Part shown: piece after piece, positions 1 through 39,522 of the stretch
How positions within the stretch are numbered: the stretch's first letter is position 1
How the letters are laid out: each line of letters opens with the position of its first letter
Source: a virus
Reading direction: 5' to 3' (one strand)
IMG/VR virus record: IMGVR_UViG_3300028675_000001
Coordinates: 1-39,522 of that record
DNA: 39,522 bases
Translations under genes and position numbers: made by a program
Notes under the pieces: model-generated
Database searches by the model: none
Seen by the model: only the letters and a program-made list of their open reading frames with translations
Told to the model about the DNA's origin: nothing

Positions 1-127
1 ATGCAAAATTATTAGCTGAACATTTAGCTAATTTAATTGATAGTCCTGCATCAATTTCTCCATTTATGGGGGCAACATTTGGTAAGTTAGCTTATATACA
101 GAGTTGGTTTCCTTATGTGGTAGCACC
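1..127. repeat. Terminal direct repeat, identical to 39396-39522 (circular-closure overlap)
   Basis: Read directly. Both copies spell atgcaaaattattagctgaacatttagc...ggtttccttatgtggtagcacc. This implies a 39,395-bp unit. Confidence 0.95.
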
Positions 128-6002: not shown

Positions 6003-7158
6003 CGCTCAAACTCCCTTTTCTTTTTAATTCCTCTAATACATCACCCTTTCGCTTAAGTATTTTCCAAACCTTTGGGTCTATCCCTCGCTTATCAATTAAC
6101 CTCTGTAAATAAACTTTATCTTCTTGCCCATACCGCCAAACACGAGATAATGCTTGCTCATATACCCGCCATGCTAACGGTAAACAAAGAAAAATCACAT
6201 TCTTATAATTAGTTAAACTTATCCCTTCCGAAATACAATAAGTAGCAAGAATTGGCTTAGTTCCTTCCTTTAATGCATCATCTAAATCTTTTTTGTCTTG
6301 CCCTGTTAAAAAATAAACATTCTTTCTACCAAGATTTTTTACTATCAAATTCAATGGCTCAATAAAATAACTAAACACTACAGTCTGCGGATTATCATTT
6401 ATAAAATCAATCACATAATCAATTTTATCCTTAAGCAATGCACTTTTCCGATATTCATACATAAATGCTTGTAAAATATTATCGCCATTAATTTGTTTAT
6501 TATCTGATTTAATTAAATATCGTCCCGATGTAAACCATTTTTCATCTTCTATCAAACTGGGTAAGTCTACAATATCTGCACGCTTCACAAAATCAACATA
6601 CGGAAAAACATATCGCTCTAAAAACTTTTCTTTGACCCCAGGTAAAAAATCAATAATGTAATAAAACATCCCATCAATCCGAAAAAATGTATTTTTATAT
6701 TGATTAAACGATAATTCATTAAATGGATGATCTGGTCGTAAAATTCTCAATTGTGAATAATAATCTTCAGGTTTCTCAAATGGTGTCCCGCTTAACATAA
6801 CTTTATAGGTTTTTGTAAAAACCTTCATAACAAGCTTTGTAATCTGTGCTTTAATACTCTTTAACTTGTGTGCTTCATCAAAAATAATCAAATTCCAAAA
6901 AGCTTTCTTTAATATCTTAGAATAATGCAATCGGAAACTATCATAACTCACAATCTCAAAATTATTTAACCTTATACCCCACTTCTCTATTTCTTGATAC
7001 CATACTTGCTTGACCGATGCAGGACACATAATAAGCACATTCCAAAAATTCTCAGCTATTTTTAGCGCCGTTAAAGTTTTACCAGTTCCCGTTTCCCAAG
7101 CTAAATAAGAATATCCATTAAATTGTTCGACTGCCCTCTGCTGATGCGGTAATAACAT
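5995..7158 (-). CDS. SNF2/SF2-family helicase
   Basis: Motif I is ETGTGKTLTA, motif II is FDEAHKLK, motif III is LSGTPFE, motif VI is QALSRVWRYGQ. Confidence 0.85.
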   Translation of the reverse strand: MLLPHQQRAVEQFNGYSYLAWETGTGKTLTALKIAENFWNVLIMCPASVKQVWYQEIEKWGIRLNNFEIVSYDSFRLHYSKILKKAFWNLIIFDEAHKLKSIKAQITKLVMKVFTKTYKVMLSGTPFEKPEDYYSQLRILRPDHPFNELSFNQYKNTFFRIDGMFYYIIDFLPGVKEKFLERYVFPYVDFVKRADIVDLPSLIEDEKWFTSGRYLIKSDNKQINGDNILQAFMYEYRKSALLKDKIDYVIDFINDNPQTVVFSYFIEPLNLIVKNLGRKNVYFLTGQDKKDLDDALKEGTKPILATYCISEGISLTNYKNVIFLCLPLAWRVYEQALSRVWRYGQEDKVYLQRLIDKRGIDPKVWKILKRKGDVLEELKRKGSLSDE

Positions 7159-7358
7159 TATTTATCGCTTTTCATTTCTTCAAGTAAACTATACAAATCC
7201 TCAGCAAGCTTTTCCAAATCTAATTCCCCCGTCTCTTCATACCTCTCTAAATGCTCACATATCTTACAATAAGCACTAATTAACCACTCCCCTAATTTTT
7301 TCTTGCTTAATTCTTCAATTGCTTGGTCTAATAAATCAGCTATTATTACACTAAACAT
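7158..7358 (-). CDS. Hypothetical acidic protein
   Basis: 66-aa ORF with a GGAGGTG SD upstream. Its stop overlaps the start of the next gene. Confidence 0.55.
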   Translation of the reverse strand: MFSVIIADLLDQAIEELSKKKLGEWLISAYCKICEHLERYEETGELDLEKLAEDLYSLLEEMKSDK

Positions 7359-9204: not shown

Positions 9205-9571
9205 TTTGCTCCTCCTCTTTCTTTATTTTTTCTAAACATTTATCAATTTCATTTAATAGCTCATCTTTCGTCATCTTCTTCGCTATCACATAATATTCAA
9301 AAACTTCACTTAATAATGTCCCAACAGCATTTTCTTCTCTTATTTTGACTTCAAATCTTGTATCATCATAAAACAAAACACTCTTTGCCAATTCAGACCC
9401 ATACATCGCCTCTAAAAATAAGCATGTCCTATACACTGCTTCCCATTCATATTGACAGTCTTGACTAATAATTGGATAAAATTTTAAAAATCTGTTCTTC
9501 CAATTTTCAACTAATTTCTCAAAATCATTATGATCCACAACTTCATATAAATTCTTCAATTCTCTAAGCAT
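9197..9571 (-). CDS. Hypothetical protein
   Basis: 124-aa ORF with the SD TAAGGAGGGG upstream. Confidence 0.55.
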   Translation of the reverse strand: MLRELKNLYEVVDHNDFEKLVENWKNRFLKFYPIISQDCQYEWEAVYRTCLFLEAMYGSELAKSVLFYDDTRFEVKIREENAVGTLLSEVFEYYVIAKKMTKDELLNEIDKCLEKIKKEEEQND

Positions 9572-9899
9572 TTTGCCCCTCCTTATTTATTATTTCCCAA
9601 ATTCCTTCCTTAATTAAATCAGCAACAGATCTACCTGTTAATTCACTTATTTTTAACATTTGTTTATATAATTCTTTATCCACAGATGAACCAAGCCGTA
9701 AAATTTTAGCTTTTCGTTGCCACAAAGCATTGGTTCCAGTTTCATTTACTAAAAAATTTGTATATTTCTTCAAAACCAATTCCATTGCCTCTTCTATTAA
9801 ATCTGCTATTGACTTATTAGTTTGATTGAGATGTTGAATAATTCGTTGCTGAAGTGCTTCACTTAACCTAAAAACAAAATTCCTTCTATTTTTTAACAT
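9564..9899 (-). CDS. Tandem ribbon-helix-helix (CopG/Arc/MetJ-like) DNA-binding regulator
   Basis: There are two RHH-like units: FVFRLSEALQQRI...SIADLIEEAMELV and ILRLGSSVDKELYKQM...RSVADLIKEGIWEI. It is the first gene behind a strong promoter. Confidence 0.6.
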   Translation of the reverse strand: MLKNRRNFVFRLSEALQQRIIQHLNQTNKSIADLIEEAMELVLKKYTNFLVNETGTNALWQRKAKILRLGSSVDKELYKQMLKISELTGRSVADLIKEGIWEIINKEGQNA

Positions 9900-9929: not shown

Positions 9930-9957
9930 ATTTTACCATAAATTTTAAAAAAGTCAA
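9930..9957 (-). promoter_or_regulatory. Sigma70-type promoter (TTGACT, 16-nt spacer, TAAAAT, with TGn)
   Basis: The minus strand reads ggcTTGACTtttttaaaatttatggTAAAATaaaa, about 30 nt upstream of the RHH gene SD. Confidence 0.6.
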
Positions 9958-10396: not shown

Positions 10397-11143
10397 TTAT
10401 CCTTTTTTAATCGTTATAACTTTTTTCTTCACATCACTTAACCGCTCAAATTCCACTACCTTAAACCTACCATATTTAGCCCCTCTCCAACTGCTCTTTC
10501 CCCAAATCTCTCCTTTTGTAAAAATATCTAAAATCTGCTTATCAGTTAACTTCCCTGCATAAACCTTCACAATAAATTCCTGCTCTATCGGTAAATTTAA
10601 CATCTCCGACCACACAATCGTAACTATATACTGCCCATATGTCCATGACCTCAATGACCTTGATAATAAACCATCAGGCTCTTTAATCAATTGCCCATTC
10701 CTTTGATAAGGAATTAAAAAATCTTTCCTATAATCCCCCGTTTCCTCAACTGGACAAATATCTACATATCTGGATATCTGATTCTTCAATGACCCAGACA
10801 TATAATGCAATGCTATTTCTTTCATAAAACCTTTAATTTGATAATGATAATCTGCCAAAAATCCCTCAGGTGTCCGAGTAAAAATTAATAATCTATTCTT
10901 CTGCTCCTCTTCACTTATCTTCATTTCTTCTTTAGCTTCAAGATCAGCCTTCAATCTTTCAATCTCTTTTTCAATAAGTTCCCGCTCCTCTTCTTTTTTA
11001 GTTTTCTTCAATTGTTTTTCAAGCTTCTCAATCTCTTTCTCAGCCTTCTTAATAATATACTGTTGAGCCAAATCACTTGATGGGTTCAAAGCTAAAACAG
11101 GAGTTAAATAACTAATCCGAATATAATATCTGTCCACTTGCAT
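10397..11143 (-). CDS. Hypothetical protein with an internal Lys/Glu coiled-coil insert
   Basis: 248-aa ORF with a GGGAGGTGGGG SD upstream. Confidence 0.6.
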   Translation of the reverse strand: MQVDRYYIRISYLTPVLALNPSSDLAQQYIIKKAEKEIEKLEKQLKKTKKEEERELIEKEIERLKADLEAKEEMKISEEEQKNRLLIFTRTPEGFLADYHYQIKGFMKEIALHYMSGSLKNQISRYVDICPVEETGDYRKDFLIPYQRNGQLIKEPDGLLSRSLRSWTYGQYIVTIVWSEMLNLPIEQEFIVKVYAGKLTDKQILDIFTKGEIWGKSSWRGAKYGRFKVVEFERLSDVKKKVITIKKG

Positions 11144-11159
11144 ACCCCACCTCCCTTTA

Positions 11160-11642
11160 TTAATTCATCATTTTTTTTATTTTTTCCAAAACAATATCAA
11201 ATGCTTTAAACCACTCAGCAACAAACTCAATATTCTCATCAAATAAAAAACACAAAATCGAAGCCCTCATCACATCAATTCCATACATTTCTTTAATTAT
11301 TTCCATACTTTCAATAAACTGTTTTTCAAATTTCTCTACAGCCTCACTTTTCTTTGCCTGTTTCAGTTCTTCAGGCAATAACTCAATTAATAAAAGAAAC
11401 CAGAAATTTTCACAACATTTAACTTCAACAAAATTCATCATACACAACCTCACTAATAACGCCAAAAACTCCTCATCAGTCAACTCAACCTTATCCTTAA
11501 ATTTCTCAACAATTGACTCAAAACACGCTTGCTTAAATAAATCAGCCGAATGATTAAAACTAAATTCTTCCAAAATCTTTAAAACTTTCTCTGGATCTAT
11601 ATTTCCAAATTTTTTGACCGCTTCAATCGCTATATCCTTCAT
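11160..11642 (-). CDS. Hypothetical protein
   Basis: 160-aa ORF with a GGGGGTGG SD upstream. Confidence 0.55.
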   Translation of the reverse strand: MKDIAIEAVKKFGNIDPEKVLKILEEFSFNHSADLFKQACFESIVEKFKDKVELTDEEFLALLVRLCMMNFVEVKCCENFWFLLLIELLPEELKQAKKSEAVEKFEKQFIESMEIIKEMYGIDVMRASILCFLFDENIEFVAEWFKAFDIVLEKIKKMMN

Positions 11643-11663
11643 TTTTCCACCCCCTTTTAAATT

Positions 11664-11996
11664 TTAACTAACCATACTCAAAACAAATTCATATTCAAGT
11701 TGCTTCAATTCTTCTTCAGTTAATATTTTGCCTTCTGGAAGTCTTGTTTTTAAAGAGAAATGCACACACATGTCCCCTGGTCTGAGTTTAACCGTGATCC
11801 TATTAAAAGGAATATTTATCCCTAATAACTCACTTAAAACTTTAGCCGTTGCTTCATGACCCACCGCCGATATAAAATCAATCTCAGATAAAATTTCTTT
11901 GGCTTCTTTTAAACTAATCTTCCTTAAAATCACTGTATACCGACTTTTTTCATCAAAATTAACAGGCACAATCAATGAATTCATTACATATAACAT
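11664..11996 (-). CDS. acrIII-1: DUF1874 / STIV B116-like protein. Candidate AcrIII-1-type viral ring nuclease (cyclic tetra-adenylate degrading).
   Basis: SAVGHEATAKVLSELLG..FNRITVKLRPGDMCVHFSLKTRLPEGKILTEEEL parallels the B116 pattern I recall (NAIGHDSTINLV...NRVEVKM.EGDEALII..SQRLEEGKVLSD.EI). About 110 aa. A GGGAGGTGGGG SD lies upstream. Confidence 0.7.
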   Translation of the reverse strand: MLYVMNSLIVPVNFDEKSRYTVILRKISLKEAKEILSEIDFISAVGHEATAKVLSELLGINIPFNRITVKLRPGDMCVHFSLKTRLPEGKILTEEELKQLEYEFVLSMVS

Positions 11997-12012
11997 AACC
12001 CCACCTCCCTTT

Positions 12013-12408
12013 TTAGTTTATTAATGTATGAATTTCTACATAAAGTAAATAATTGCCATCTCGCTTAGTCCATCGATAACACATCACATCATTGTATCTT
12101 TCTTTGCTTAACCGCCAATCTAAATCATATCCATTTGCTTCATCTTGCTCTCTTACCGCATAAGTAATCCCTATTACAACCATTCCCTCAATCATATATC
12201 TGACCCACTCCTCATCCAAATCATCATAAAATTCTAAATCCTTATCATGTAAAGAGACAGATTTCTTAGCCTCTAAATATCCTCCTTGCCAAACTAAAAC
12301 ATCAGGCTTCTCACCAAATACATTTGTAAAGTATTCAATTATCCTTTCCTTCCGTTCTTCTTCCCGTAGTTTCTTTTTTGTTTTGTTAATCCATTCAAAT
12401 TTTTTCAT
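12013..12408 (-). CDS. Hypothetical protein, distant paralog of 14345..14701
   Basis: 131-aa ORF with the SD TAAGGAGGGG. It shares W..KT..EE.R...IIE.F.N.F...PD.V and a C-terminal Y.W.K pattern with the 118-aa ORF. Confidence 0.6.
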   Translation of the reverse strand: MKKFEWINKTKKKLREEERKERIIEYFTNVFGEKPDVLVWQGGYLEAKKSVSLHDKDLEFYDDLDEEWVRYMIEGMVVIGITYAVREQDEANGYDLDWRLSKERYNDVMCYRWTKRDGNYLLYVEIHTLIN

Positions 12409-12419
12409 TTTGCCCCTCC

Positions 12420-12548
12420 TTATCTTTTAATTATCCGCTTTAGTCTATGCTTTAGTCTTTTCCATAGACCCCGACGTTCAAATTCATCTCTCTTCATAAA
12501 AACCCACTGACCATTTTTCCATATTGTTAAATACTTAAGCTCCGCCAT
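12420..12548 (-). CDS. Small basic ORF (42 aa, MAELKYLTIWKNGQWVFMKRDEFERRGLWKRLKHRLKRIIKR), not in the track
   Basis: GGAGGTG sits 5 nt before the ATG. The start overlaps the stop of 12535..12741. The stop lies 11 nt before the next start codon. Confidence 0.4.
   Translation of the reverse strand: MAELKYLTIWKNGQWVFMKRDEFERRGLWKRLKHRLKRIIKR
12438..12473 (-). repeat. 12-bp-phased CTTTAGT repeats (ACTAAAG in the minus sense), 2 to 3 units
   Basis: ctttagtctatg / ctttagtctttt / ccatagaccccg. A 20-nt core here is identical to 14090-14108 apart from the last base. Confidence 0.6.
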
Positions 12549-12741
12549 AAACCCACCTCCTTTTTGATTTTATCCCTAACTTTTTCAAAATCATTTTCCG
12601 CACTTGTTCCTCAGACCACCCCCGCCACAGTCGCCTACCTTGCTCAGTAAAAAGCAACTCAAAAAGCTTCCCTTCCTCAATAGCCCGCTCAATAATTCGC
12701 TCCAAACACGCCTCAGGAAATAATTTAAAACTCACTGACAT
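12535..12741 (-). CDS. Hypothetical protein
   Basis: 68-aa ORF with a GGTGA SD-like site upstream, abutting the upstream gene. Confidence 0.5.
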   Translation of the reverse strand: MSVSFKLFPEACLERIIERAIEEGKLFELLFTEQGRRLWRGWSEEQVRKMILKKLGIKSKRRWVYGGA

Positions 12742-12745
12742 GGCT

Positions 12746-13072
12746 TCACCTTTCTAAAAACTTTCTTAATTCTTCTCTTTTTTCTTCTGGCACTTTCATC
12801 GCTAATTCTCTCACATAATCTAAAAGCTCTTCATCTAATTTCACTTTCTCTTCAAATTGCAAACTATCATAAAACTCATCACCATCGAAAATAGTAGATA
12901 ACCACGATCCCCAACTCCACCCCCATGCCCTCTCGGGGGATCTCATATACCGCTGAAATACTAAATAAGCACATTCTTCTCTCGAATGTTTTTCCCACTG
13001 CTCATATGGCAACACATTAAATACTAATTTTTCGAACCACTCTTCAATAGTAAGCTTTCGTTGGTTTGTCAT
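12746..13072 (-). CDS. Hypothetical Trp-rich protein
   Basis: 108-aa ORF with the SD TAAGGAGGT and its own promoter upstream. Confidence 0.6.
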   Translation of the reverse strand: MTNQRKLTIEEWFEKLVFNVLPYEQWEKHSREECAYLVFQRYMRSPERAWGWSWGSWLSTIFDGDEFYDSLQFEEKVKLDEELLDYVRELAMKVPEEKREELRKFLER

Positions 13073-13082
13073 GGCTCTACCT

Positions 13083-13106
13083 CCTTAGTTTTTGCTTTAG
13101 TTCTAA
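13083..13106 (-). repeat. 12-bp-phased CTTTAGT-type repeats (2 units) between the -10 box and the SD
   Basis: ccttagtttttg / ctttagttctaa. The first unit merges with the SD. Confidence 0.5.
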
Positions 13107-13130
13107 TATAACATATTTTTAAAATGTCAA
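13105..13130 (-). promoter_or_regulatory. Sigma70-type promoter (TTGACA, 14-nt spacer, TATATT, with TGn)
   Basis: The minus strand reads cttcTTGACAttttaaaaatatgtTATATTag. The spacer is shorter than in the sibling promoters. Confidence 0.45.
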
Positions 13131-13291
13131 GAAGTTCTTTCTTGTGTTCTAAAAATTTTTTTGCTATAATATTTTGTAAAACATAAACGACATAACCTCA
13201 TAAACCCTTCTGGTTTTAACAAATAAACGGTTTGCTTAATCAAAATTGAACGCCCGCAATGGTCACATCTAATTTGCTTTAGTTCTTGCAT
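13127..13291 (-). CDS. Small zinc-ribbon protein (54 aa, MQELKQIRCDHCGRSILIKQTVYLLKPEGFMRLCRLCFTKYYSKKIFRTQERTS), not in the track
   Basis: GGAGGTG sits 5 nt before the ATG. It has paired CxxC motifs (CDHC, CRLC). Its stop codon lies inside the next promoter's -35 box. Confidence 0.55.
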   Translation of the reverse strand: MQELKQIRCDHCGRSILIKQTVYLLKPEGFMRLCRLCFTKYYSKKIFRTQERTS

Positions 13292-13314: not shown

Positions 13315-13342
13315 ATTATACCACACTTTTTAAATTTGTCAA
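13315..13342 (-). promoter_or_regulatory. Sigma70-type promoter (TTGACA, 16-nt spacer, TATAAT, with TGn)
   Basis: The minus strand reads ccccTTGACAaatttaaaaagtgtggTATAATaaaa. Confidence 0.65.
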
Positions 13343-14286: not shown

Positions 14287-14315
14287 AAAAGAAAAAAGGG
14301 GGGCTATGCCCCCCT
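14287..14315 (-). terminator. Rho-independent terminator (minus strand)
   Basis: The minus sense reads A-GGGGGGC-ATA-GCCCCCC-TTTTTTCTTTT, about 30 nt after the stop of 14345..14701. Confidence 0.75.
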
Positions 14316-14344
14316 CGTTTCTAATTCAGAGTGTGGAGTGGAGA

Positions 14345-14958: not shown

Positions 14959-14986
14959 ATTATACCATATTTTTTAAAAATGTCAA
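14959..14986 (-). promoter_or_regulatory. Sigma70-type promoter (TTGACA, 16-nt spacer, TATAAT, with TGn)
   Basis: The minus strand reads ggtcTTGACAtttttaaaaaatatggTATAATaaaa. Confidence 0.65.
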
Positions 14987-15329: not shown

Positions 15330-15357
15330 AAGATAACACAGTTTTTTAAAATGTCAA
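15330..15357 (-). promoter_or_regulatory. Sigma70-type promoter (TTGACA, 16-nt spacer, TATCTT)
   Basis: The minus strand reads ggacTTGACAttttaaaaaactgtgtTATCTTtgt. Confidence 0.55.
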
Positions 15358-16108: not shown

Positions 16109-16186
16109 AGGGGGGTGGGGTATGGGGTATAGGTTTATTATTTTATTTATTGTTTAATTTAAGGATTGGTTTATAATTTTATTGAT

Positions 16187-16452
16187 ATGTTACCGAAGCG
16201 TAGGGTATATAGTGATGATTTTCAGACGCCTGATTGGGTGGTAGATTATTTAGTGCCTTATTTAAGGAGGGGGTGGGTAATTTGGGAGTGTGCGATGGGT
16301 AAGGGTAATTTAGTAAGGGGGTTGAGGTGATTGTATTACCGAGGAGGGTGAATTTTGAGGTGCCGAGTGGTAGGAGGGGTTCTGGGAGTTGGTTTCCAGT
16401 TGGTTGGTTTACGAATTGGTTAGGGATTGGAAGGCAATTGATATTTATTTAA
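16187..16452 (+). pseudogene. Remnant of a gamma-class (TaqI-like) N6-adenine DNA methyltransferase, truncated and frameshifted
   Basis: 16187-16330 encodes MLPKRRVYSDDFQTPDWVVDYLVPYLRRGWVIWECAMGKGNLVRGLR-stop. That matches motif X/I, xxTPxxVVDxMV...(V)LEPxCGxGxF. No NPPY-type catalytic motif follows. A shifted frame continues to 16452. Confidence 0.5.
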
Positions 16453-16464
16453 AGGGGGTATGAT

Positions 16465-16680
16465 ATGGGTCGCAGAAGTGGGAAGAATGATAGTAAGGTA
16501 GTTGTTGATGAATTTATTGATATGATGTTAGATGATATTAGGAATGAGCTTCGGGAGATATTGAGTGAATTAGAGATTTATCAGAGGACTTGGGTGGTGC
16601 CTTGGTTTGTGCAGAAGTTACTTAGTGATTTACATATTAGATTGAGTTTATTGTTGGATAAGTTGGGAAGGAGTATGTAG
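16465..16680 (+). CDS. Hypothetical protein
   Basis: 71-aa ORF with an AAGGGGG SD-like site upstream. Its 3' end overlaps the convergent gene by 33 nt. Confidence 0.4.
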   Translation: MGRRSGKNDSKVVVDEFIDMMLDDIRNELREILSELEIYQRTWVVPWFVQKLLSDLHIRLSLLLDKLGRSM

Positions 16681-17085
16681 ATTTATGGAATGAATTTCGT
16701 GTTTGATTGTTTCAAGGTCGAGTTTATGTAGGATGAAGAGGAGAAGGTCTTTTGGTTTAATTTGATAAGTTTCTTGGATGTATTGAAGGATTTCAAGTGC
16801 GATTTTAGTATCTTCGTTGATTGGTTTAAGTTTAGATTGTCCAAGTGTTTGGAGTGATTGTGTGCGTTCGATTAGGTTAACGAGTTTTTCTTTGAAGGTA
16901 ATGATTTGGTTGAGGTTTTGGAGGGCGAGGTTGAGTTCGGCGTCATCGTAGGCAAGTTCTTTTGCTCGGATTGCGAAGATATGTTCGAGTTCTTGGCAGG
17001 CTTTAAGTAAGGCGATTAGAATTTTAGGATCAAGAAGTTCAGGATTAATTTGGTCAATGGTAAGTTGATTTTTTTGTTTAGACAT
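16648..17085 (-). CDS. Hypothetical protein, co-transcribed with the putative portal
   Basis: 145-aa ORF that starts 2 nt after the upstream stop. Confidence 0.55.
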   Translation of the reverse strand: MSKQKNQLTIDQINPELLDPKILIALLKACQELEHIFAIRAKELAYDDAELNLALQNLNQIITFKEKLVNLIERTQSLQTLGQSKLKPINEDTKIALEILQYIQETYQIKPKDLLLFILHKLDLETIKHEIHSINLHTPSQLIQQ

Positions 17086-17087
17086 GA

Positions 17088-18788
17088 TTATTTTTCCTCA
17101 TTATTTTTCTCAGGGATGGGCACGCCAGTTAGTTCGGAAATAAGTTTAGGTAAGTCAACATCTTCCATGGATGGATGTTTAGAGAATTTAGAAAGCAAAG
17201 TAAGGAGTTCAGTTAATTTTTGTTGATGTTGGAGTTCAGTTGATTGTGAGGCTTGAATGAGTTGAGCAAGTTTATTTACTTCTATAATATCAGGTGGCAG
17301 GTCAAGGTTATAAAGGATTTCGTGGATGAGTTTCTCAATGTTAAGAATAGGTAGGAGATTAAGTTGACCAAAGAGTTCGAGGAGGGACATAATTTTTTCG
17401 AGGCGTTCATTTTTTTGGACGACGGAAGTAAAACCACGAATTTTGAATTTAATTTGTGATAAGACATCATCAGGAGTGATGGTTGCGAGTAAGTTTAATT
17501 CTTCGGGTAGAAGAAGTTGCTGAAGGTTCGGTGCTTCGTATTTAAGGATGTAATAAAGGAGTTTGGTTAGAAGTTGAGAGATGAAGACGGTTTCTAAGCG
17601 TTCAATGAAAATGGCGAGGGTCATTTGAGTTTGTTGAGTTTTAAGGGAAACTTCTTTAGCAGTGACACGAGAGCGAGAGGATGGAAGACCCATAATAAAT
17701 TCAGTGATTGCGGAAACATTTGTAGCTTCGTTCTGAATGAGGTTGCGGATTGGTAAAGCATTAGGATCAAAATTGGCAAGTTTAATTGGTCGAATTGCTT
17801 GTATTTCGCCACCACCTCTTGTGTAAAAAATCTTCCATGGTTTTAATTCATCAGATAGACTATCTTCTTCAATAACGGTTGTATCAATTTCAAAACCAAG
17901 TGTTAAATTAACTAATGCACTGTCTAATATAGCACGGGTTAAGATAGTATCTTGAATATAATATGGATAAATAAGGTCAGCATAAGAAATTTGAGTGTTA
18001 ATACCATAAAGAAATTCAACGACAAATGGAGTGATTTTATCGTGCATTATTTCGGCATTGATGATTTTAGTTTTATTTAAAATAGTGTAAAGATGGGGCG
18101 TTATAATATCATTAGGTAAGAAAACAATACCATAAAATTTATCAATACGAACAACTTTATCATCATAAACTTTTTGTAAATATGTAAGAACTGAATATTC
18201 TGGATCATCTTGTGGAGCTATATATGGTTTAATTTGGTCGTAAGATAAGTTATATCTTCGAATAGCTTCTGGAATGGGCAAGTATTCTGTGATGCAGACA
18301 TAATTTAAATCGGGGGTGAGTTTGGAATGAAGTGGATTAATTACTTGTAAATCTAAGCGTTTGAGATCTTCGTTATATGTGATGTAAATAAATCCATATC
18401 CAGATAGAAGGCTATAGAAAAGGACTTTTGAAAGAGCATCTTTAACATTGAGAGTTTTAATATAATGTTGGAGGATTTTTGTTAGGATAATTTGAAGTTG
18501 TTCGTTATCGGTATCAATAGTAAAGAGATTTTCAAAAGCTTTTTCAAGAAAAGAGCGAAGATAAAAGTAAGCAAAAAAGATTTTTTGATAGAACATTGAA
18601 GATAGAAACTTTGATTGCCAAGGGTAAGGTGGGTCTGGTATATTAGTTTCGCCGTTTAATTCTTGCATATATCGGATAATTGTTGTTAAGCGACGAGAGT
18701 AAGCACTTTCAACAGATAACAATTGACCTATTACATAACTTTCAATATCAGGAAAATTGTAAATTTGATTATTGATTGATAAAACCAT
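17088..18788 (-). CDS. Putative portal protein. Assigned by size and elimination, with no motif support.
   Basis: 566 aa with an acidic C-terminus. It is the only unassigned protein of portal size. It has an AGAGGG SD and its own promoter. Confidence 0.4.
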   Translation of the reverse strand: MVLSINNQIYNFPDIESYVIGQLLSVESAYSRRLTTIIRYMQELNGETNIPDPPYPWQSKFLSSMFYQKIFFAYFYLRSFLEKAFENLFTIDTDNEQLQIILTKILQHYIKTLNVKDALSKVLFYSLLSGYGFIYITYNEDLKRLDLQVINPLHSKLTPDLNYVCITEYLPIPEAIRRYNLSYDQIKPYIAPQDDPEYSVLTYLQKVYDDKVVRIDKFYGIVFLPNDIITPHLYTILNKTKIINAEIMHDKITPFVVEFLYGINTQISYADLIYPYYIQDTILTRAILDSALVNLTLGFEIDTTVIEEDSLSDELKPWKIFYTRGGGEIQAIRPIKLANFDPNALPIRNLIQNEATNVSAITEFIMGLPSSRSRVTAKEVSLKTQQTQMTLAIFIERLETVFISQLLTKLLYYILKYEAPNLQQLLLPEELNLLATITPDDVLSQIKFKIRGFTSVVQKNERLEKIMSLLELFGQLNLLPILNIEKLIHEILYNLDLPPDIIEVNKLAQLIQASQSTELQHQQKLTELLTLLSKFSKHPSMEDVDLPKLISELTGVPIPEKNNEEK

Positions 18789-36496: not shown

Positions 36497-39400
36497 ATGG
36501 GGTTAACTGATATAATACATGATTTAAAGGTTAAATTTTTTGGTTATGGAGAGGATGATGTATTAAATTTTATTGCATATCCCAAGAAAGGGGAGATTAG
36601 TAAATTATTAAAAGATAAAGCATCGAGGGAGAAGTTTTTTTCTACGGTCAATCAAATAGCTCAAAAAAGGGGTTTAAATCCAAATGAAACAATAAAAGTT
36701 GTATCAAGGTATATATTACAGAAAGCGAAGGATAATGAATTAATACGGTCAGAAGTGTTTACAAATCCTCGTTTACAAGATTATGAAGAGATAATTGGAC
36801 TTGATGAGTTAGGTCGGTATGCGTTCGGTGAAAAAGATCCTGGGTTGGGTATTGTTCGTGTGATTAATGTTGCAAATATTGGAAAAAGAATAGAAAAAAA
36901 AGAGCATGATAAATTTGTTGCTAATGTAAGAAATTCAGTGAGAATGGCTTATCAAGTTCATGATACGATTGAGCGAATAGATAAGGCATTAGATATAGCA
37001 AGTGATATTTCATTAATTTTGGGGCTTGGTAGTTTGGTTGTTAAGGGAGGTCTTTGGATTGGGAAGAGAGTATTAAAAGATGTAATAAAAGAGACTTTAG
37101 GCAAATCATTAGTAGTGAAAGCTTTAACTGGGGTTGCAAGTTTAGGGATTAAAGCTGGAGATATAGCGTTTGCTGGGAGTGAATTAGGTAAAGTGACATT
37201 AAATACAGTAGCAAAAGGGTTGCCATTATCATATTCATTAGATCATATTTTATTTGGTGGGCTTCCGTTAGCAGGTCTTTTAGGTTCAAAAACAAAAATA
37301 GGACAAGAAATTATACGCAAAACAGAAGGAGCACCATTTAAAACAGTAGAAGATATTAAAACAGCAATAATTGAGGGACAAGTTGATTTGGGGCTTATTG
37401 AATATAAACCTAAAGAAGTTGCTGATTTATTTGCTAATCAGTTAAAAACACACCTTGAGCAAAAATCTGGAAAGAAATGGTCATTAGAAGCCTTAAACGG
37501 ATTAAATGTTCAAATCGCACAAGTAGCAAATTCATTACAAGATAAAGTTAAATTCAATACTTTAATTCTTTCCGATACCATAAGTGAACCGAACAAATAT
37601 AAAGATAAAATCCATAAAATTTTCCAAGAGCACAGAGATTGGTTGGACTATAACTGGAATAAAATTTCTCAATTATTAGATAAATTACCAGATGAACAAA
37701 TAAAAATTGTTAATCAAGATCATGAATTAATTGAATTTTTTAGTATGAATACGAGCAGAGCATTATATAATCGGGTTATTAATGCAGTTGAAGATTTAAA
37801 AAAGCAAGGAATAGAATTAGACAAAGTGAAAATAAAAGTAGGGGATGAAATTGTAGCGTTTACTGGTGCTCAAGTTTATTCAAATGATTTTATGAAATTA
37901 ATTGAAGATTACACAAAGAAAGCAATAAGAAATGAACATATAGGAGTAGGGGTTGAATTTTTAGATGAAGCTGGTGAACAAATAAAAACAATTGGTTTAC
38001 CTTCAATTTATATTCCTACTTCAGATTATAAGAAAGTAATGAAAGTTTTTGTTGCAGATGAGGAGGGAATTAAAGATATTTATGTTGATATACCGCAAGT
38101 TTTATTAGGAGCAGTTGGTGAAAAATTTAAAGGAGATATTAACAAAATTCATGATTTTTTGAAAGAATATGTAGCAAAGGTTAAAGGATTAGATAAAGAA
38201 CAAATTCACGGAATTTTACAAATTTATGATCCAGCAACGCAATTGTTTCCTTCTACAATTGTTCGAGAATTAAAATTATCACAGTATAAATTATTTGATG
38301 ATTTATTAGGTTTATTTCCTGATGAAGAACTGAAGCAACTTGGGCTAAAAAGGGAACGGATAACTAAACTAACTGAATTTGCAGAAAATATAGCAACAGC
38401 ATTTAATCAACAAGTTTTCCGCTTCCATAAAATTCAAATAGAAAAATCATTAAAAGAAATCAGAAGCAATCTAAAAGAACTTTTAGGTAAAGAACCAAAA
38501 GATAAAACAAAAACTGAAAAATTACTTGAAGAGGCATTAGAAAAAGCATCTATAAGTAATAATGAAGAGTTTACTAATTTAATTAATCAATTTGCTCAGG
38601 TCGTTCAAGAATACAAATCTAAATTAATAGATATTAAAAGTTTTTATACAGACACAAAAAAAGCAAAGCTTGCTGAAAAATTAACAAAAGTCTTCCAAAA
38701 AACAAATACGCTAATTGAAAAATTAGGCAATCAACCAATTGAAACATTAAGAGAAAAAATTATTAATACATTAGCTTATAAACATCCAAGTGAATTTAGA
38801 AAGTATGGTTCTGGTTTTGTTGATGTGCAATTATTAGCACAGCTTGATAAAAATTTAGCAATAGATTATTTAGCTCGTGCATATACAAGACCGTGGACAA
38901 CAGAAACAAGGTGGTTATTAAGTGTTGTAAGAAATGTTGATGAAATAGTTCTTAATAATCCAATGCTTAAAGATACTGATTTTGCTAAAACTTTGAAACT
39001 TGTGCGGGATTATCAAGGAACGGATACAGCAAGAAGTAAATGGATTAGAACAATTGGTAAAATATCAAGAATTTATACGATGTTTTTACCAAGAATTGCA
39101 ATGGGTGCAGGAGTTCAGTTATTTAGTGCTATTTCGCAAAGGTATCCAAGTTTTAGATTTTTCCAAGCACCACTTGAAACAATAAAAGATATATTAAAAA
39201 CCCCTGAACTTAGAGATTATTTAGCTAAACAAATAAAAGAAGAACTTGGGGAGCATCATTATTTATCATTCTGGATTAGAGCTATTGAACCATTAGTTCA
39301 AACAATTTTTTACAATGAATTAATGAAAAATCCAAAATTTAGAGAAGAAGTTTTGAAAGATTTTGGGCGAGCTATTAAAGAATTTACTCCTACGGATGCA

Positions 39401-39522
39401 AAATTATTAGCTGAACATTTAGCTAATTTAATTGATAGTCCTGCATCAATTTCTCCATTTATGGGGGCAACATTTGGTAAGTTAGCTTATATACAGAGTT
39501 GGTTTCCTTATGTGGTAGCACC
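36497..39522 (+). CDS. N-terminal 1,008 codons of the 1,428-aa virion protein (tape-measure or ejection-protein-like). It is open at the window end and continues at base 3.
   Basis: Reading from the ATG at 36497 I found no in-frame stop up to 39522. The frame (position mod 3 = 2) equals the frame of 66..1388 shifted by 39,395. Gly-zipper hydrophobic segments are present (LILGLGSLVVKGGLWIG, LTGVASLGIKAGDIAFAG, LFGGLPLAGLLG). It is absent from the track because there is no stop in the window. Confidence 0.8.
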   Translation, partial: MGLTDIIHDLKVKFFGYGEDDVLNFIAYPKKGEISKLLKDKASREKFFSTVNQIAQKRGLNPNETIKVVSRYILQKAKDNELIRSEVFTNPRLQDYEEIIGLDELGRYAFGEKDPGLGIVRVINVANIGKRIEKKEHDKFVANVRNSVRMAYQVHDTIERIDKALDIASDISLILGLGSLVVKGGLWIGKRVLKDVIKETLGKSLVVKALTGVASLGIKAGDIAFAGSELGKVTLNTVAKGLPLSYSLDHILFGGLPLAGLLGSKTKIGQEIIRKTEGAPFKTVEDIKTAIIEGQVDLGLIEYKPKEVADLFANQLKTHLEQKSGKKWSLEALNGLNVQIAQVANSLQDKVKFNTLILSDTISEPNKYKDKIHKIFQEHRDWLDYNWNKISQLLDKLPDEQIKIVNQDHELIEFFSMNTSRALYNRVINAVEDLKKQGIELDKVKIKVGDEIVAFTGAQVYSNDFMKLIEDYTKKAIRNEHIGVGVEFLDEAGEQIKTIGLPSIYIPTSDYKKVMKVFVADEEGIKDIYVDIPQVLLGAVGEKFKGDINKIHDFLKEYVAKVKGLDKEQIHGILQIYDPATQLFPSTIVRELKLSQYKLFDDLLGLFPDEELKQLGLKRERITKLTEFAENIATAFNQQVFRFHKIQIEKSLKEIRSNLKELLGKEPKDKTKTEKLLEEALEKASISNNEEFTNLINQFAQVVQEYKSKLIDIKSFYTDTKKAKLAEKLTKVFQKTNTLIEKLGNQPIETLREKIINTLAYKHPSEFRKYGSGFVDVQLLAQLDKNLAIDYLARAYTRPWTTETRWLLSVVRNVDEIVLNNPMLKDTDFAKTLKLVRDYQGTDTARSKWIRTIGKISRIYTMFLPRIAMGAGVQLFSAISQRYPSFRFFQAPLETIKDILKTPELRDYLAKQIKEELGEHHYLSFWIRAIEPLVQTIFYNELMKNPKFREEVLKDFGRAIKEFTPTDAKLLAEHLANLIDSPASISPFMGATFGKLAYIQSWFPYVVA
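39396..39522. repeat. Second copy of the 127-bp terminal overlap (identical to 1-127)
   Basis: Direct comparison base by base. Confidence 0.95.

Follow-up and report, generated by a model that had tools for sequence, protein, structure and literature searches.

A DUF1874/AcrIII-1-Family Gene Predicted to Encode a cA4 Ring Nuclease in the Complete Genome of a Putative Aquificae Phage

The stretch of DNA analysed here, referred to below as the window (39,522 nucleotides, IMG/VR virus record IMGVR_UViG_3300028675_000001), carries on its minus strand, at 11664-11996, a gene whose 110-aa product is a clear member of the DUF1874/AcrIII-1 family. It is quite probable that this product is a viral ring nuclease of the AcrIII-1 type, made early in infection, which removes the cyclic tetra-adenylate (cA4) of the host and thereby counters type III CRISPR. 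The reading is carried by the family and fold of the protein, the conservation of its catalytic and ligand-binding residues, its phage context, the purifying selection acting on it, and an arrangement of promoter and operon that would suit early expression.

The Phage Genome and Its Relatives

First of all, the first 127 nt of the window (1-127) are identical to its last 127 nt (39396-39522), which indicates a closed assembly or a short terminal redundancy; the genome is thus complete, and its unique sequence amounts to 39,395 bp. The G+C content is 32%, and no tRNA genes were found in the 39,395 bp. The genome encodes a family A DNA polymerase (PolA), an SNF2 helicase, a Cas4-like PD-(D/E)XK nuclease, an SU10-type portal, a large terminase (TerL) and tail-fibre domains, as well as a 960-aa protein (primase-helicase) homologous to the "DUF927 helicase domain" proteins of Conch Spring virus and AJCSV. 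Among published genomes, that of Aquificae Conch Spring virus comes nearest: its nucleotide identity is 78% over 67% of the first 25 kb, and the portals are 80% identical. Both Thermocrinis Great Boiling Spring virus (TGBSV) and AJCSV are remoter. All three belong to the Pyrovirus genomes of Palmer et al. 2020, for which Aquificae hosts were reported on the strength of CRISPR spacers. Judging from these similarities, the genome is that of a tailed phage of the "Pyrovirus" group infecting Aquificae; the phage comes from a hot spring.

As to the general layout of the genome, the sign of the GC skew changes near 16 kb, within an AT-rich and repeat-rich gap (15.3-16.6 kb) that is likely the replication origin. 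The portal gene and an ORF of 145 aa next to it (16648-18788, minus strand) lie in DNA with a strongly positive local skew (+0.49), all minus-strand genes other than this portal module lie in negative-skew DNA, and the portal module is thus transcribed against the skew. Two short plus-strand ORFs of 54 and 41 aa, located at 16166-16452, occupy the same position as two annotated methyltransferase ORFs of Conch Spring virus; they contain the strings DFQTP and ECAMGKGN, which we take to be reminiscent of a methyltransferase N-terminus, and they resemble what would be left of a methyltransferase gene after decay or truncation.

The relatives of the DUF1874 protein itself are distributed as follows. 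The nearest metagenomic relative is 86% identical, and all relatives at 59% identity or more are located on viral or metagenomic contigs; those from IMG/VR were obtained with an alignment-based scan, the single-sequence scan having given none. The best cellular relatives, from Fervidicola, Desulfurella and an Aquificales MAG (44%), do not exceed 50% identity. Remoter homologues (35-47% identity) adjoin cmr/csm genes in bacterial genomes and are genuine Crn2. Among further cellular Crn2 examples, mostly on Pseudomonadota MAGs, the DUF1874 homologue stands directly beside cmr1, cmr3, cmr4 and cmr6 (L061, L068, L069, L088, L095, L105) or directly beside csm3, csm4 and csm5 (L096). No type III cas genes were found in the window by tblastn with Thermus Csm3, Csm4, Csm5, Cmr1, Cmr3, Cmr4 and Cmr6, and the sole cas-related match in it is the Cas4-like PD-(D/E)XK nuclease of the replication module. 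Since the context is that of a phage throughout, the best cellular relatives reach 50% identity at most and no csm/cmr homologues are present, the protein is assigned to the viral form (AcrIII-1) and not to Crn2.

The Gene, Its Family and Its Fold

The gene starts with ATG, comprises 110 codons and ends with a stop codon at 11664-11666. A strong Shine-Dalgarno sequence, GGGAGGTGGGG, read from the sequence at 11999-12009 (minus strand), lies just 5′ of the ATG, and the gap to the stop codon of the upstream ORF (12013-12408) is just 16 nt. In comparisons with four relatives of 75-80% amino-acid identity, the dN/dS ratio is 0.09-0.15. Values of this size point to a real protein under purifying selection; that is to say, the ORF is a genuine gene. 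The earlier note had drawn attention to this ORF through the motif series GH, NR, GD and R-x-P-E-G-K-x-L, and all of these motifs are present, namely SAVGHEAT at residues 43-50 (with G46-H47), N65-R66, G74-D75 and RLPEGKIL at residues 85-92; they are conserved across the family and do not occur by chance.

The assignment to DUF1874/AcrIII-1, which the earlier note had made from these motifs and had proposed to check by a profile search, is borne out by that search. The Pfam model PF08960 (STIV_B116-like, formerly DUF1874) matches with 96.8 bits against a cut-off of 26 (E 8.8e-28), residues 2-103 of the protein being aligned to positions 1-100 of the 101 in the profile, and PHROG 5063 (phrog_5063) matches with an E-value of 7e-35. 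No NCBIfam model matches the protein. When the sequences of the PDB were searched with phmmer, AFV3-109 (2j6b) was found with an E-value of 1e-26 over residues 1-106, and the other matches were SIRV1 gp29 (2x4i, and 6scf, the AcrIII-1:cA4 complex), STIV B116 (2j85) and three chains named "CRISPR-associated protein" (8y7f, 8y6z and 8y7g), which are labelled as Marinitoga Csx1-Crn2 in the Foldseek fold search. The PADLOC model of Csx16 also matches the protein (70.2 bits, E 5e-20), over residues 26-104 only, and this match is attributed to the structural relationship between Csx16 and Crn2 homologues described by Hoikkala et al. A Csx16 identity was rejected, since the match is both weaker and shorter than that of PF08960 and there is no CRISPR context.

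The fold leads to the same family. The AlphaFold (AF2) monomer model, built on 52 homologues, has a pLDDT of 92.2 and a pTM of 0.84, and in the Foldseek comparison with the PDB all 17 matches with E below 0.01 are DUF1874 structures (TM 0.65-0.87), AcrIII-1 bound to cA4 among them; the following match is a DHFR with an E-value of 0.17. In this way the superposition on B116/AcrIII-1 that had been suggested earlier was approximated, and only DUF1874 structures stand among the significant matches.

The Active Site

The protein can be aligned to SIRV1 gp29 without gaps over residues 12-100, so that the residue numbers coincide (H47, T50, R66, R85, E88 and L92). According to Athukoralage et al., H47 is the absolutely conserved general acid, the mutation H47A lowering the activity more than 2500-fold; R85 is a loop residue that locks the closed dimer; and the contacts to cA4 are made by N8, S11, N13, S49, T50, R66, Q81, I69 and L92. 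To place the phage protein against these data, an alignment of 28 sequences was used, including SIRV1 gp29, STIV B116, the 109-aa AFV homologue, the proteins of Hydrogenobaculum phage 1 and Conch Spring virus, and 22 metagenomic homologues. N6 (corresponding to N8 of SIRV1), G46, H47, R66, R85, L86, E88 and G89 are invariant in it, and T50, D75, P87 and L92 are conserved in at least 90% of the sequences. The conservation pattern is alike in a second alignment of 52 sequences, where H47 is invariant as well.

Several contact positions of SIRV1 gp29 differ in the phage protein: A stands in place of S49 and S in place of Q81, while the S11/N13 positions lack conservation. These differences recur in the AFV3-109-like subgroup. 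As far as can be read from the alignment, most but not all of the cA4 contacts of SIRV1 gp29 are thus kept. The cA4 nuclease activity of the DUF1874 family has been demonstrated for both viral and cellular members (Athukoralage et al.; Hoikkala et al.), and by analogy the phage protein is predicted to cleave cA4.

Promoters, Operon and Timing

The DUF1874 gene is the sixth in an operon-like run of eight closely spaced ORFs on the minus strand (10397-13291), which was recognised from the ORF map and from synteny in related phage contigs and is made up, in order of transcription, of ORFs of 54, 108, 68, 42 and 131 aa, the DUF1874 gene, and ORFs of 160 and 248 aa. At the head of the run stands a sigma-70-type promoter at 13342-13315 (minus strand), with the perfect consensus TTGACA-N16-TATAAT and an extended -10 TG, followed by the Shine-Dalgarno sequence and ATG of the 54-aa ORF, from which the run extends from 13291 to 10397. 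From this perfect promoter it is about 1.3 kb to the DUF1874 gene, which in turn stands upstream of the replication genes; these come behind the next promoter copy. There is no convincing terminator-like site within 10397-13291; the single weak candidate (10865-10878, with 3 GC pairs) is inside the last ORF, downstream of DUF1874.

The promoter belongs to a cluster. Perfect matches to TTGACA-N16-18-TATAAT number 3 in the window, against 0.12 expected by chance, and the promoter motif TTGACAttttTAAAAAnnnnGgTATAAT is repeated on the minus strand of the leftward arm at 15330-15357, 14959-14986, 13315-13342 and 9930-9957, that is, 4 copies where zero are expected, half of them with the perfect sigma-70 consensus. 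In addition, a strong terminator-like GC hairpin with a T-run is located at 14296-14316 (minus strand), after the 118-aa ORF. Together, the promoter copies and this terminator split the leftward arm into four or five transcription units. The layout fits early transcription by the host polymerase, as judged from the consensus of the promoters. What the earlier note had called an "early block" is accordingly plausible with respect to its arrangement: within the leftward replication arm, the gene belongs to an operon-like run with a perfect sigma-70 promoter at its head. The early timing is a reading of the promoter consensus.

Neighbouring Genes

The earlier note had also marked the small early genes around DUF1874 as anti-defence candidates, and for this idea no direct support was obtained. 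None of the neighbours of DUF1874 matches a known anti-defence family in Pfam, PHROGs, NCBIfam or PADLOC, the most conserved of them (the 248-aa ORF described below) comes from a widespread phage family that is not linked to DUF1874, and the neighbouring ORFs of 160, 131, 108, 68, 192, 118 and 99 aa gave nothing in these four collections or in the PDB sequence search. Across related phage contigs, the 160-, 131-, 68- and 42-aa ORFs are conserved in a patchy manner, and for those of 192, 99, 54 and 48 aa no homologue was found in the related loci fetched.

The 248-aa ORF beside the DUF1874 gene (10397-11143, minus strand) belongs to an uncharacterised phage family. It accompanies DUF1874 in all closer pyrovirus-like and HP1-like relatives (L001, L003, L006-L018) and does not do so in the remoter L019-L022. 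Its family has at least 442 cluster representatives at an E-value of 1e-3 or better and no Pfam model, and members are also found in Mu-like and RecT/PD-(D/E)XK phage modules without DUF1874; a role as dedicated partner of DUF1874 was rejected, because the family is so widespread and occurs without it. The PHROG label "DNA topoisomerase II" was likewise set aside, since it apparently reflects a coiled-coil hairpin insert (model residues 25-73), and the few topoisomerase matches of the model in Foldseek cover only about 51 columns.

The AF2 model of the 248-aa protein (pLDDT 70) finds in the PDB only Cas7-family RAMP proteins, namely Cmr4, Csm3, Csm5, Cas7-11 and the type VII Cas7, all of them weakly (E about 1e-3, TM 0.3-0.46). 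In profile-profile comparison by hhalign, the family gives 64% probability against Csm3, in a C-terminal segment with a glycine-rich loop, WGKSSWRGAKYGRF, and no signal against Cmr4. The RAMP likeness, which comes from a predicted model, may be regarded as a lead and not as a result.

The tandem ribbon-helix-helix (RHH) protein of 111 aa (9564-9899, minus strand; Pfam RHH_3, E 3.1e-9) is encoded two genes downstream of DUF1874, where it is the first ORF to follow the next copy of the promoter. A homologue of its second RHH is joined in frame to DUF1874 in the fusion proteins of relatives of the Hydrogenobaculum phage 1 type, namely P0012, P0023, P0032 and P0041 (166-168 aa) and L011 (6654-7317, with the fusion ORF at 6814-7317), and tblastn also links the RHH protein of the window with these fusions, in which the indels of the linker preserve the reading frame. 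By analogy, the arrangement resembles that of Acr and Aca genes. The tandem RHH protein is a candidate regulator, possibly Aca-like, and the fusions could be self-regulating Acr-Aca proteins.

Hosts and Sister Viruses

The prediction made earlier from the protein, namely that the host possesses a cA4-dependent type III system, agrees with published data on the Aquificae hosts of sister viruses, by analogy with which it would hold here. It has been reported by Orzechowski et al. 2025 (preprint) that a spacer against TGBSV is present in a type III-A locus of Thermocrinis jamiesonii, the likely host of TGBSV, that this bacterium also has a type III-B CalpL, and that the CalpL of Sulfurihydrogenibium is activated by cA4. 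For Conch37, the closest published relative, Palmer et al. reported no significant spacer matches.

Moreover, Orzechowski et al. 2025 proved biochemically that TGBSV encodes AcrIII-2, a SAVED-domain ring nuclease specific for cA4. Its gene (37253-37963 of TGBSV, L048) is the third of the equivalent leftward arm. DUF1874 is present in this genome and in Conch Spring virus; by tblastn it is absent from TGBSV, a SAVED homologue is absent from the window, and AJCSV (L049) has neither of them. No AcrIII-2/vSAVED homologue was found in any other fetched locus, and the scan of IMG/VR for this protein returned only TGBSV itself. The presence of two unrelated cA4 nucleases at corresponding positions in related phages argues that the removal of cA4 is the selected function.

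Proposed Mechanism and Alternative Explanations

Taken together, the following course may be proposed. By analogy with SIRV1 gp29, two copies of the protein would pair into a homodimer with cA4 enclosed between them and the R85 loop shut over it; H47 of each subunit would serve as the general acid, so that the ring would be cut on both sides into A2>P and A2-P. The enzyme would be made from the early leftward transcription unit of the phage. Once the type III complexes of the host detect phage transcripts, Cas10 would make cA4, the enzyme would remove it, and the cA4-dependent effectors (CalpL, Csx1, Can2 or Cam1-type) would never be activated; the expected outcome in the natural host would be an anti-CRISPR effect.

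The first alternative, considered unlikely, is that the protein is an active cA4 ring nuclease that is not an anti-CRISPR in natural infection and benefits the phage through another activity, as proposed for SIRV2 gp37, for example by inhibiting a bound host protein or by tuning another cA4-dependent process. [quoted passage not shown] These authors argue that other roles may be common among viral ring nucleases. This is a fair warning that an anti-CRISPR function needs native evidence. However, the methyltransferase partner is restricted to Crenarchaeota, with the interacting residues conserved in few rudiviruses only (Martinez-Alvarez et al. preprint), so that this mechanism cannot apply to an Aquificae phage. 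The position of the DUF1874 gene behind a perfect sigma-70 promoter, within a promoter cluster, also stands against a purely non-defensive role, as does the fact that a sister virus has a cA4 ring nuclease of an unrelated kind in this arm, which points to selection for cA4 removal.

Very unlikely, on the basis of the modelled RAMP likeness, is a two-part anti-type III module in which the 248-aa protein would act as a decoy backbone subunit or as a crRNA binder poisoning Csm/Cmr, and AcrIII-1 would remove cA4.

It is highly improbable that the product is a small DNA-binding protein acting in the replication or transcription of the phage genome, as might be thought from the RefSeq label "DNA binding protein" on homologues in the AFV, ARV1, SIFV and ATV records, from the location of the gene within the replication arm, and from the RHH DNA-binding domain fused to DUF1874 in related phages. 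The residues that never vary among the bacterial, archaeal and viral members serve to contact or cleave cA4 in 6scf, the demonstrated cA4 nuclease activity of the family supersedes the old label, and any DNA binding by the RHH-DUF1874 fusions is attributable to the added RHH domain.

Finally, that the gene is a cellular housekeeping ring nuclease of the Crn2 type (or Csx16) from a host type III locus, caught in a chimeric or prophage contig, is scarcely credible, for in spite of the partial Csx16 match and of the distant homologues beside cmr/csm, the sequence closes circularly, is phage from end to end and lacks type III cas genes, the gene order round DUF1874 is common to other pyrovirus contigs, and PF08960 outscores the Csx16 model over the full length of the protein.

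Significance

The gene is sound but ordinary, since its orthologues in the closest published relatives had already been annotated or noted as Acr-like, and the current understanding is therefore unchanged. The analysis adds a well-supported AcrIII-1 gene in a complete genome from a group of hyperthermophile phages that is not yet culturable, and it lends support to the idea that the phages of Aquificae are under major pressure from type III CRISPR signalling through cA4. Within one small phage group there is either AcrIII-1, or the unrelated AcrIII-2, or, in one member, no detectable homologue of either. As the enzyme family is active at about 80 °C, a member of it could also be used as a heat-stable reagent to stop CRISPR diagnostics that rely on cA4. 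Further study might be worthwhile for the RHH fusions and the RAMP-like neighbour alone.

Comparison with Known Systems

The closest solved structure is AFV3-109 (2j6b), which, together with the 109-aa homologues of the Acidianus filamentous viruses (betalipothrixvirus), is about 45-50% identical to the phage protein (Foldseek E 4e-13, TM 0.83). The N-terminal MLY(I/V)LNS, GH(E/Q)AT, NR, GD and RLPEG are shared between them, whereas AFV3-109 comes from an archaeal filamentous virus of Sulfolobales and the present gene from what appears to be a tailed phage of Aquificae bacteria. AcrIII-1 (SIRV1 gp29) and STIV B116 have the same Pfam family, fold and viral context, but their identity to the phage protein is only 24-33%; moreover, the rudivirus gene is a middle/late one, and it is disputed whether it acts as an anti-CRISPR in native infection.

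Among the phages of Aquificae, the orthologue of Aquificae Conch Spring virus (DAD54617, 110 aa, annotated "DUF1874" in GenBank) has 74.5% identity and that of Hydrogenobaculum phage 1 (ALG96929, 110 aa) has 65.5%, and the latter protein was already included in the alignment of the original AcrIII-1 paper (Athukoralage et al.). Both genes are placed like the one in the window with respect to the 248-aa neighbour and the replication genes, while the genes immediately upstream of DUF1874 differ among this phage, Conch Spring virus and Hydrogenobaculum phage 1. It was also noted by Palmer et al. that ORF 3 of OS3173 (Thermocrinis Octopus Spring virus) resembles a Sulfolobus virus Acr.

The cellular Crn2 and Csx1-Crn2 proteins (8y7f, 8y7g) have the same domain and the same catalytic His, with Foldseek TM values up to 0.87, and by analogy the same action on cA4 would be expected; however, they are located within type III CRISPR loci or fused to their components, whereas the phage gene stands in a genome without type III cas genes. 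AcrIII-2 of TGBSV, with 236 aa, shows no sequence similarity to the phage protein and is unrelated in fold, its SAVED domain having been taken from CalpL. Its gene is likewise located upstream of the replication genes in the leftward arm; the enzyme degrades cA4, and it presumably serves the same purpose.
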